Part shown: in pieces, positions 18,622 to 47,616 of the stretch
Numbering within the stretch: the stretch's first letter is position 1
Layout of the letters: each line of letters opens with the position of its first letter
Assembly: GCA_963719945.1 (NCBI GenBank)
Contig: CAVRDX010000001.1
Location: 448,001 to 512,000, forward strand
From: an uncultured Thermoplasmata archaeon
GTDB taxonomy: Archaea; Thermoplasmatota; Thermoplasmata; UBA10834
Direction: 5' to 3'
Length of the DNA stretch: 64,000 nucleotides
Made by a program: the position numbers and the translations under genes
Notes under the pieces: model-generated
Database searches by the model: none
Told to the model about the DNA's origin: nothing
The model's input: only the letters and a program-made list of their open reading frames with translations

Positions 18622-19626
18622 ATGTATCCCATAGATGGCGGTAATGTGGACATGATAGATGCTGACGGACTGGTCGAGGCGATCAGGGCGTATCGAGGGG
18701 TGGTGAGGAAATCTCCTATATCCTCTGTCGTCTCCAAACTGCTTCCCATGGATGCCAAGGGCATCATCGCGACCCACGGGGAGGATGCGGCTGCTATAGA
18801 GTCAGGGTCGGAAGTGCTTCTGCTGGCTGCTGATGGCATACGACCTGACCTTGTGCAGAAGAATCCGCGATGGGCGGGCTATTGCGCAGTACTCGTCAAC
18901 GTCAACGACATCGCTGCGATGGGTGGCTTGCCGATTGCGGCAGTCAATGTCCTGTCATGCTCTGATGCATCGAGACGCAGGAAGATCGTCGATGGAATGA
19001 GATTCGCATGTGACAAGTTCGGTGTGCCCATGGTGGGTGGGCACCTGCATCCTGACACTACGTATGATGCGATCGATGTGGCGATATTGGGAAAGACCGA
19101 CAAGGATCATCTCCTGCTCAGTTCAGGGGCAAGGAACGGCGATTCAATCGTATTCGCGATGGATTTGGCAGGGAGATTCACCCGTGGACTCAAATATTCC
19201 TGGGATACGACGAGCACGAAAACACCTGCTGAGGTCCAGAGACATTTGAGATTGATGCACAGGATGGCACCAATGCTGAGTTCTGGTAAGGATATCAGCA
19301 ATCCTGGATCGTTGGGGACGCTTGGCATGCTCTTGGAATCGAGTTCATGCGGGGCGGAGGTAGATGTATCATTGATACCTAGACCCGGGAATGTCGACCT
19401 CCTGCAATGGCTCCTCGCGTATCAGGGGTTCGGTTTCGTCGTGACATGCGAATCGAGCAAGGTGAGATCAGTCCTGAGCAGGTTCAGTCGTGCAGGCATA
19501 CAGGCCGCACGATGCGGAGAGGTCACAAGATCACATAGACTGGATTTGATTTTCCAAGGTGAAAGTCGCACGCTGTTCGATTTCGGGACCGACACCTTCG
19601 GATGCTCGACTCCGCAAAAGCTATGA
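18622..19626 (+). CDS. AIR-synthase-related (PurM/SelD/ThiL superfamily) protein, methanogenesis marker 2-like
   Basis: GEDAA, AGYCAVLVNVNDIAAMGG, VGGHLHPD, KDISNPG. Confidence 0.82.
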   Translation: MYPIDGGNVDMIDADGLVEAIRAYRGVVRKSPISSVVSKLLPMDAKGIIATHGEDAAAIESGSEVLLLAADGIRPDLVQKNPRWAGYCAVLVNVNDIAAMGGLPIAAVNVLSCSDASRRRKIVDGMRFACDKFGVPMVGGHLHPDTTYDAIDVAILGKTDKDHLLLSSGARNGDSIVFAMDLAGRFTRGLKYSWDTTSTKTPAEVQRHLRLMHRMAPMLSSGKDISNPGSLGTLGMLLESSSCGAEVDVSLIPRPGNVDLLQWLLAYQGFGFVVTCESSKVRSVLSRFSRAGIQAARCGEVTRSHRLDLIFQGESRTLFDFGTDTFGCSTPQKL

Positions 19627-19652
19627 GCACGCTGGCGCTTCATGTTGATAGG

Positions 19653-19777
19653 AAGAGCGAGAAACACGGTAACACAGCGGTTAGCAACCAATCCGAGAGG
19701 GCGCCTAAACGCTCGGGTAGGTTGAGCTAGTAAAAGGATGCTGTCACGCTGCGGCGTCCGCCGTGCTCGACTCTCTT
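19653..19777. ncRNA. unannotated structured RNA candidate (nested stems plus pseudoknot)
   Basis: Five nested complementary segments and a loop GGGCGCC / GGCGTCC pairing; intergenic. Confidence 0.5.
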
Positions 19778-19793
19778 GAGAAAAATAGAGGAG

Positions 19794-20105
19794 TGCTAGG
19801 CGACTGGGGTTGCCGGCCTCTCCATGCGCCAGCTACCCAGAAACCTCCTCGGTCCCGCTTCCCGGTGAGCGTTGATAGTTCGCGGTAAGGCTGCTCCCGT
19901 CAGGGCCTGACCCGATCTCCGCGACAAAGGCAGACACTCCCGCCCTCCGGCAGGAGCATATAGCCCCCTTCAACCCCATCGGACAGGGCCTCACTGTCGG
20001 CTTCTGGACTGGCGCCGGTTCGGTTACGACGTCCCCAGCTGTCACCCCCACTGTCGACGATTTTGGTGTATAAGGACACGCCGAACGTCCCGGTCGAGCC
20101 TAGCA
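19794..20105 (-). ncRNA. ffs: archaeal SRP (7S) RNA
   Basis: ~312 nt; paired ends (UGCUAGG/CCUAGCA); helix 8 GGUCAGGCCC-UGAC-GGGAGCAGCC; helix 6 GGAG loop; T-run downstream. Confidence 0.92.
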
Positions 20106-20376
20106 TGCCGGAATATAAACTACAACTAAAAGGAGTTTTGCTCACAAATATCGTTTTTCAAGCTGAATCTGCGGGGGGACTGGTGAGACATGCCCGTGCG
20201 CGAGTATCGACAGATTCATTCGATTCTCGCTCTCTGTGCAGATAAAAGCTCAGTCAGGTTAATATAGCTATGAATGGGTTTCCCGTCGCAACCTTGGGGG
20301 GAGAGTTTGGACGTTCTTAGCGGCCAACTCGCCTGACACGACGTATCAAGGGGGATATTACGGAGTGGTTTAAGGC

Positions 20377-47516: not shown

Positions 47517-47616
47517 GGGCCTGTAGTGTAGCTTGGATATCACAGGGGCCTCCGGAGCCCCGAACTCGGGTTCGAAAGACGTTGATAATATACGTCCGAA
47601 ATTCCCGACAGGCCCG
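47517..47616 (+). tRNA. tRNA-Arg(CCG) with a 26-nt intron in the T-loop (47577-47602, position 59/60)
   Basis: Cloverleaf with anticodon CCG at 47552-47554; canonical bulge-helix-bulge around the insert. Confidence 0.93.

Follow-up and report, generated by a model that had tools for sequence, protein, structure and literature searches.

A conserved RNA gene beside the SRP RNA gene in a family of Thermoplasmata, and the probable circularisation of its 108-nt product by tRNA-splicing enzymes

The window, a stretch of 64,000 nt from the genome of an uncultured Thermoplasmata archaeon, contains an archaeal SRP RNA gene on the minus strand. It is recognised by Rfam, as is one tRNA. The SRP RNA gene converges with an open reading frame (ORF) on the plus strand (18622-19626) that encodes an AIR-synthase-like protein, scoring 354 bits with TIGR03267 ('methanogenesis marker 2') against a cut-off of 365. 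This ORF is the last in a conserved row of genes, after an M50 peptidase gene and a gene for an unknown protein of 191-206 aa. The gap that runs from its stop codon (19626) to the SRP RNA 3' end (19794) is filled by a structured element, as the original prediction had pointed out. That prediction also held that the element belongs to no recognised RNA family. Searches of Rfam 15 bear this out, since they gave the element no match at the gathering score in the window, and in a search of 401 nt (19500-19900) there was no match at E <= 10 save for the SRP RNA. The element at 19653-19777 is a real and new RNA family with no earlier description. Its features, and those next to it, are the following.

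19613-19626, plus strand: BRE/TATA-like promoter motif CGCAAAAGCTATGA, overlapping the TGA stop codon of the AIR-synthase-like ORF
19653-19777, plus strand: conserved precursor core, closed by a bulge-helix-bulge stem (alignment, covariance model and contigs of metatranscriptome assembly X20)
19653-19657, plus strand: 5' strand of outer helix h, pairing with 19773-19777 (98.8% of cells paired, double changes at pairs 1:125 and 2:124)
19658-19661, plus strand: central 4-bp helix H, CGAG, pairing with CTCG at 19766-19769 (100% paired in 57 distinct sequences)
19662-19664, plus strand: 5' bulge AAA (all sequences except one with AUA)
19664-19771, plus strand: predicted mature product, a 108-nt circle (bulge-helix-bulge rule and back-join contig)
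19665-19669, plus strand: inner helix h', also P2, CACGG, pairing with CCGTG at 19761-19765 (invariant, 100% paired)
19675-19679, plus strand: CAGCG in the junction, candidate pseudoknot partner of the complementary CGCUG at 19747-19751 in the loop of hairpin B
19682-19729, plus strand: hairpin A, with P3 (19682-19689/19720-19729) and P4 (19693-19697/19712-19716)
19736-19759, plus strand: hairpin B, with P5 (19736-19741/19754-19759) and a 12-nt loop (19742-19753)
19770-19772, plus strand: 3' bulge ACT (ACU in the RNA), invariant except for one ACC
19794-20105, minus strand: archaeal SRP RNA gene (Rfam, 169 bits)

The element is strongly conserved within a narrow group. Using BLAST and covariance model R1, it was found in 40 of the 49 genomes of the order, all 40 belonging to one family, and in each of the 12 high-quality genomes of the order. 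Each of these genomes has a single match, with model scores between 146 and 160 bits. The precursor core is 125 nt long in every copy, with zero indels, and an alignment from 23 genomes shows a mean column identity of 95% over these 125 nt. Compared with the copy in the window, the mean identity is 93% for the element and 89% for the adjacent SRP RNA. Scans of genomes and metagenomes yielded 99 copies altogether, 57 of them distinct, and the public contigs that carry the same element include the metagenome-assembled genomes UBA10834, UBA9653 and RBG_13_57_23. When hairpins A and B were allowed to vary in length in a pattern search of metagenomes, all copies obtained still had the standard spacing. 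Two genome-contig matches labelled as bacterial were rejected as chance matches inside coding sequence. Neither a paralogue of the element nor any other locus resembling it, the tRNA-Trp intron included, is present in its own genome.

Outside this family, the element was not found. BLAST and the covariance model gave no match in the three genomes of the sister family, the covariance model gave none in 135 other genomes of the class, and viral contigs contained zero copies. The neighbourhoods of the SRP RNA gene in six other families, searched with filters off, lacked a homologue as well (best E = 0.15). In the sister family, the orthologous AIR-synthase-like ORF directly adjoins the SRP RNA gene with nothing in between, which indicates that the element is specific to one family. 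Within the family, the gene downstream of the element varies among genomes; in the window, this position is taken by the convergent SRP RNA gene. In some genomes of genus g3 and relatives (L089, L101 and L177), an inserted gene for a clostripain-family (C11) peptidase separates the RNA gene from that of the SRP RNA, while the RNA gene is still found just downstream of the AIR-synthase-like ORF.

The ends of the element pair into a closing stem of a specific shape, which the original prediction did not recognise, although all the helices concerned (AAGAG/CTCTT, CGAG/CTCG and CACGG/CCGTG) were correctly located in it. The stem consists of helices of 5, 4 and 5 bp, the middle one being CGAG/CUCG, with a bulge of 3 nt on the 3' side of each strand of this central helix. 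Such a 4-bp helix with two 3-nt bulges on opposite strands and a flanking helix on both sides is the canonical archaeal bulge-helix-bulge motif, hBHBh' (PMC4731332). Two pairs of the outer helix covary, whereas the inner helix is invariant. The geometry is canonical on the plus strand only.

The known cleavage rule for this motif places a cut after the second bulge base of each strand. Applied to the closing stem, it predicts cuts at 19663^19664 and 19771^19772, releasing 108 nt. The same rule recovers the introns of tRNA-Val(GAC) (28 nt) and tRNA-Met (22 nt) as ARAGORN assigns them. The enzymes for such a reaction are encoded in the same genome: EndA by an ORF of 351 aa with two catalytic-type PF01974 domains, and RtcB. 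The bulge-helix-bulge shape alone is weak evidence, because 35 strict 5-4-5 shapes with a span of at most 300 nt occur in this genome, mainly within long ORFs.

Several other loci were noted in addition. A tRNA-Arg(CCG) gene on the plus strand of the window (47517-47616) has a canonical bulge-helix-bulge (47566-47608) around a predicted 26-nt intron (47577-47602) in its T-loop. Both Rfam, at the gathering score, and ARAGORN miss this gene. ARAGORN does call it after removal of the intron, which restores the UUCGAAU T-loop. The bulge-helix-bulge rule can thus recover tRNA genes with non-canonical introns that standard finders overlook. Secondly, the 23S rRNA of this genome is flanked by a canonical bulge-helix-bulge processing stem with helices of 13, 4 and 9 bp. 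The 16S, 23S and 5S rRNA genes are unlinked (C1:50768-52235, C1:127322-130252 and C3:286993-287114, respectively). Thirdly, the tRNA-Trp gene (C3:13268-13443) contains an intron of 102 nt with C/D-like boxes. Lastly, the bulge-helix-bulge arms of the element, GAGAGCGAGAAA...CUCGACUCUCUC, recur at a second locus in one related genome (L188:295-421, on G051:C30). The inner helix of this locus is compensated (GAUGG/CCAUC) and its interior of 93 nt is unrelated to the element. The locus is a singleton among approximately 400 genomes of the class, and it is crossed by an open frame of which the 5' part resembles TtcA-like coding sequence.

To look for products of the gene, four metatranscriptome assemblies were compared with positions 19300-20300. 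Such contigs reveal neither the strand, nor the read counts, nor the circular fraction of the RNA. The SRP RNA is covered in all four RNA runs, whereas the neighbouring ORF (19300-19640) and the region 20116-20300 are covered in none; in X15 and X18, contigs were found on the SRP RNA only and none on the element. Assembly X16 contains a contig of 105 nt with a depth of 1580, in which alignment columns 106-119 are joined directly to 19664 and on to 19752. Its first 14 letters, ending in ...GCTCGAC, finish at column 119 (19771) and are followed by column 12, so that the join coincides exactly with the two cuts predicted by the rule. The contig corresponds to the predicted circle after opening at the one stretch that is polymorphic. 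The flanks 19653-19663 and 19772-19777 have zero cover in X16. The join was seen in one assembled contig of one metatranscriptome, from a relative that differs at 7 positions in 89 nt. At the DNA level, this order of bases was not found. A pattern of 23 nt spanning the join had zero matches in 241 million metagenome DNA records, 73 of which contain the linear order, and the 49 genomes of the order lack an exact copy of the join, with 1-mismatch matches at control level.

From these elements it is concluded that 19653-19777 is probably a stand-alone gene on the plus strand for a circular non-coding RNA, and that its transcript is most likely matured into a circle of 108 nt by the tRNA-splicing machinery. 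The main competing explanation is that the gene makes a linear structured RNA of about 125-130 nt, with a fortuitous resemblance of its ends to a bulge-helix-bulge and a join that either arose during assembly or represents an infrequent by-product. Assembly X20 fits a linear molecule, as its contigs cover 19654-19737 and 19715-19776 and thereby contain bases outside the predicted cuts. These contigs match a precursor of about 130 nt, and they imply the additional presence of a linear form, of a precursor or of DNA. The frequency of chance bulge-helix-bulge shapes in the genome and the restriction of the join to a single contig point in the same direction. On the other hand, the join falls precisely on both canonical cut sites, in a contig with a depth of 1580 that lacks the flanks. 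In addition, the bulges and the central helix are practically invariant among the 57 distinct sequences, while the outer helix covaries like that of a processing stem. A purely linear RNA is therefore considered unlikely.

The strand of the element, which had been called ambiguous in the original prediction, is settled by its G-U pairs. On the plus strand, G-U occurs at pair 31:76 in 37 distinct sequences, at 86:105 in 15 and at 1:125 in 12, and each of these would be an A-C mismatch on the minus strand. The predicted folding energy of the plus strand is -49.2 kcal/mol (z = -2.94 versus shuffles), compared to a z of -1.25 for the minus strand.

Upstream of the closing stem, motif CGCAAAAGCTATGA is located at -40 to -27 from its first base. 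The last codons and the stop of the AIR-synthase-like ORF double as this motif. Of 75 distinct upstream flanks, 74 contain its consensus, CRCAAA-RNNTAWRA, with a start between -44 and -36, most often at -38/-37. This spacing suits an archaeal BRE/TATA promoter with a transcription start within a few bases of 19653. The motif is retained even when the upstream gene is a different one or is located on the opposite strand, as in L070 and L108, where the upstream neighbour is an opposite-strand M28 peptidase gene. It is probably the RNA gene's own promoter. Most genera, though not genus g4, have a second, semi-conserved motif (YTATRGATG or TCATGTG) at a distance of 6-17 nt before the stem, in the window at 19636-19648. 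It is too close to the stem for a TATA box and could be an initiator or a leader sequence. At the other end, most copies have a pyrimidine- or T-rich tract on their 3' side, which is weak in this window.

The promoter bears on a further explanation, in which the element is an intron-like or regulatory 3' UTR element that is co-transcribed with the AIR-synthase-like gene. The short distance of 27 nt to the stop of this gene, and its upstream position in most genomes, genus g3 included, would agree with such a role. However, the BRE/TATA-like motif accompanies the element also in the genomes with the M28 peptidase gene on the opposite strand, which makes a 3' UTR element unlikely. Moreover, the ORF itself has no RNA contig, and the sister family retains the ORF beside its SRP RNA gene without the element. 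Altogether, co-transcription with the ORF is highly improbable. A cis-regulatory leader or riboswitch was rejected too, the next downstream feature being the convergent SRP RNA gene.

Pairing and double changes were counted for each helix over the 57 distinct homologues and compared with slid controls. Standard pairs make up 97.9% of the cells, and 8 pairs show double changes, versus about 40% of cells paired in the slid controls. The covariation that the original prediction proposed to look for is thus present, and the predicted three-way junction is supported by compensatory changes. Its first arm, P2, is retained in the circular consensus fold, where it is capped by a ligation loop of 7 nt, CUCGAC|A. 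The second arm is hairpin A, of which both helices (TAG-CAACC/GGTTG-ag-CTA and CCGAG/CTCGG) were already part of the original prediction. In P4, pair 43:62 is GC in 29 sequences and CG in 27, and at pair 44:61 there are 51 sequences with AU and 6 with UA. In P3, pair 31:76 shows a series of AU, GU and GC, while pair 33:72 lacks support, being unpaired in 15 of the 57. The hairpin ends in a 14-nt loop (19698-19711) with the invariant GGGCGCCUA. The third arm, hairpin B, has double changes in four of the six pairs of P5 (GC/UA/UG/CG and CG/GC/UA). Its pair 88:103 (19740/19755) is recurrently A-C, in 26 of the 57 distinct sequences, alternating with G-C and A-U; this may be a tolerated wobble. 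The most constant segments of the RNA are the unpaired ones, i.e., the GGGCGCCUA loop, the A-rich junctions, the UGUCACGCUGC loop and the ligation loop.

Two long-range pairings had been proposed in addition. CAGCG and CGCTG are perfectly complementary, but as a nested helix they are incompatible with P5, so that the pairing stands as a possible pseudoknot that links the junction to the hairpin B loop. Neither side varies in the BLAST-collected set, and covariation thus argues neither for nor against this candidate. The second proposal, a 7-bp pseudoknot between the apical loop GGGCGCC and GGCGTCC at 19753-19759, underlies the explanation that the element is a pseudoknotted ribozyme or another self-processing RNA. 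This complementarity exists in the window, and the element has many bases that are unpaired yet invariant, much like those in a catalytic or ligand-binding core. Across homologues, however, the central pair (50:104) is disrupted in 15 out of 17 distinct sequences and the two segments do not covary, hence the pseudoknot is not supported. Instead, 19753-19759 (columns 101-107) covary with 19736-19741 (columns 84-89) in hairpin B. A ribozyme is without support, since the search at E <= 10 gave no match to any ribozyme family and the predicted processing sites are of the kind cut by a protein enzyme, and it is given even less credence than a 3' UTR element. Among the natures offered in the original prediction, a new non-coding RNA is the one that stands: the element is conserved, has a putative promoter of its own, belongs to no Rfam family and is present in metatranscriptome assemblies.

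The least probable explanation is that of a permuted or disguised known RNA, such as a tRNA, 5S rRNA or RNase P RNA, that is restored by circularisation like the SRP RNA of Thermoproteus; circularisation can indeed conceal a permuted gene from covariance models (PMC4731332), but Rfam gave not even partial matches, ARAGORN was negative on both the region and the doubled circle, also for tRNAs that contain introns or are permuted, and RNase P RNA, 5S rRNA and SRP RNA are all encoded in the same genome in canonical form, the first two elsewhere than at this locus.

The following pathway is proposed for the circular RNA. The archaeal RNA polymerase would initiate from the promoter at 19613-19626, with a start around 19653, and produce a precursor of about 130 nt. 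As sequence and covariation show, the ends of this precursor form the canonical hBHBh' motif with the bulges AAA and ACU. The tRNA-splicing endonuclease of 351 aa would then, following the established rule, cut at 19663^19664 and 19771^19772. Next, the excised piece would be closed into a ring of 108 nt, the junction having been seen once in environmental RNA, presumably by RtcB, with the short ligated flanks as a by-product. The ring would adopt the three-way junction of P2 with the ligation loop, hairpin A and hairpin B, whose helices are shown by covariation, and the CAGCG:CGCUG pseudoknot may connect the hairpin B loop with the junction.

As to its function, the analysis found neither a target nor a partner protein or ligand of the ring. 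The constant unpaired parts, the single copy per genome and a conservation at least equal to that of the SRP RNA lead to the proposal that the ring is a structured, exonuclease-resistant RNA that may act through a fixed partner, most likely a protein. Constant unpaired segments would fit a folded RNA that acts with a fixed partner better than a regulator of the seed type, and a free-ranging antisense regulator seems less likely. A number of other roles were considered and rejected. Coding potential was discarded in view of stop codons in all three frames of the circle. For an antisense role, a complementarity of at least 12 nt was not found anywhere in the genome, and the sole match to rRNA, 8 nt in the 23S rRNA, is at chance level. 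The GGGCGCCUA loop resembles the 5' end of a tRNA, yet no tRNA of this genome has that acceptor stem. The element has no C/D or H/ACA boxes either.

Circular RNAs that are made through a bulge-helix-bulge have been described in literature, and those in the consulted survey and paper are rRNA intermediates, tRNA introns and one permuted SRP RNA. Nothing relevant was found in literature on circular RNA in Thermoplasmata. Of the closest cases, the first is the circular SRP RNA of Thermoproteus tenax and T. uzoniensis, in which a bulge-helix-bulge of leader and trailer is cut by the tRNA-splicing endonuclease (Plagens et al., 2015, PMC4731332). Its gene has its own TATA box, and its stable circle was detected through reads across the join (PMC4731332). 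Both are stand-alone genes for a non-coding RNA with a TATA-type promoter and a bulge-helix-bulge formed by leader and trailer. However, the Thermoproteus RNA is a permuted member of a universal family whose function is restored by circularisation, while the RNA of 19653-19777 is not a member of any known family, showed no permutation in the tests made, and is encoded beside a normal SRP RNA gene of the linear type. The second case is that of the circular pre-rRNAs, in which a long-range closing stem contains a bulge-helix-bulge that EndA cuts, followed by ligation into a circle (PMC12558985). These share the type of closing stem, which the 23S rRNA of the present genome possesses as well, but they are transient and are reopened to linear rRNA, whereas the 108-nt circle appears to be an end product. 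Thirdly, excised rings may have a job of their own, as in the case of the box C/D tRNA-Trp intron and the metazoan tricRNAs (PMC12558985, PMC6614914). Circular tRNA introns have a host tRNA. The RNA described here has none, and what could be called its 'exons' amounts to stem segments of only some 11 and 6 nt, which suggests that the whole gene exists to make the ring. In contrast to the published circles, it thus appears to combine the lack of a known family, the lack of a host gene and a ring that is the end product.

It is tempting to speculate further that the ring is the RNA core of an undescribed, family-specific machine of a ligand-binding, catalytic or RNP nature, and at the same time an instance of a wider, unrecognised class of archaeal genes that yield nothing but a circular RNA, produced by the tRNA-splicing enzymes, although this extended reading is doubtful. 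If the proposed maturation is correct, it would mean that archaea use their tRNA-splicing enzymes to produce dedicated circular RNAs from promoter-driven genes, and a clade of uncultured Thermoplasmata from sediment and groundwater would gain a new RNA with a degree of conservation similar to that of its SRP RNA.
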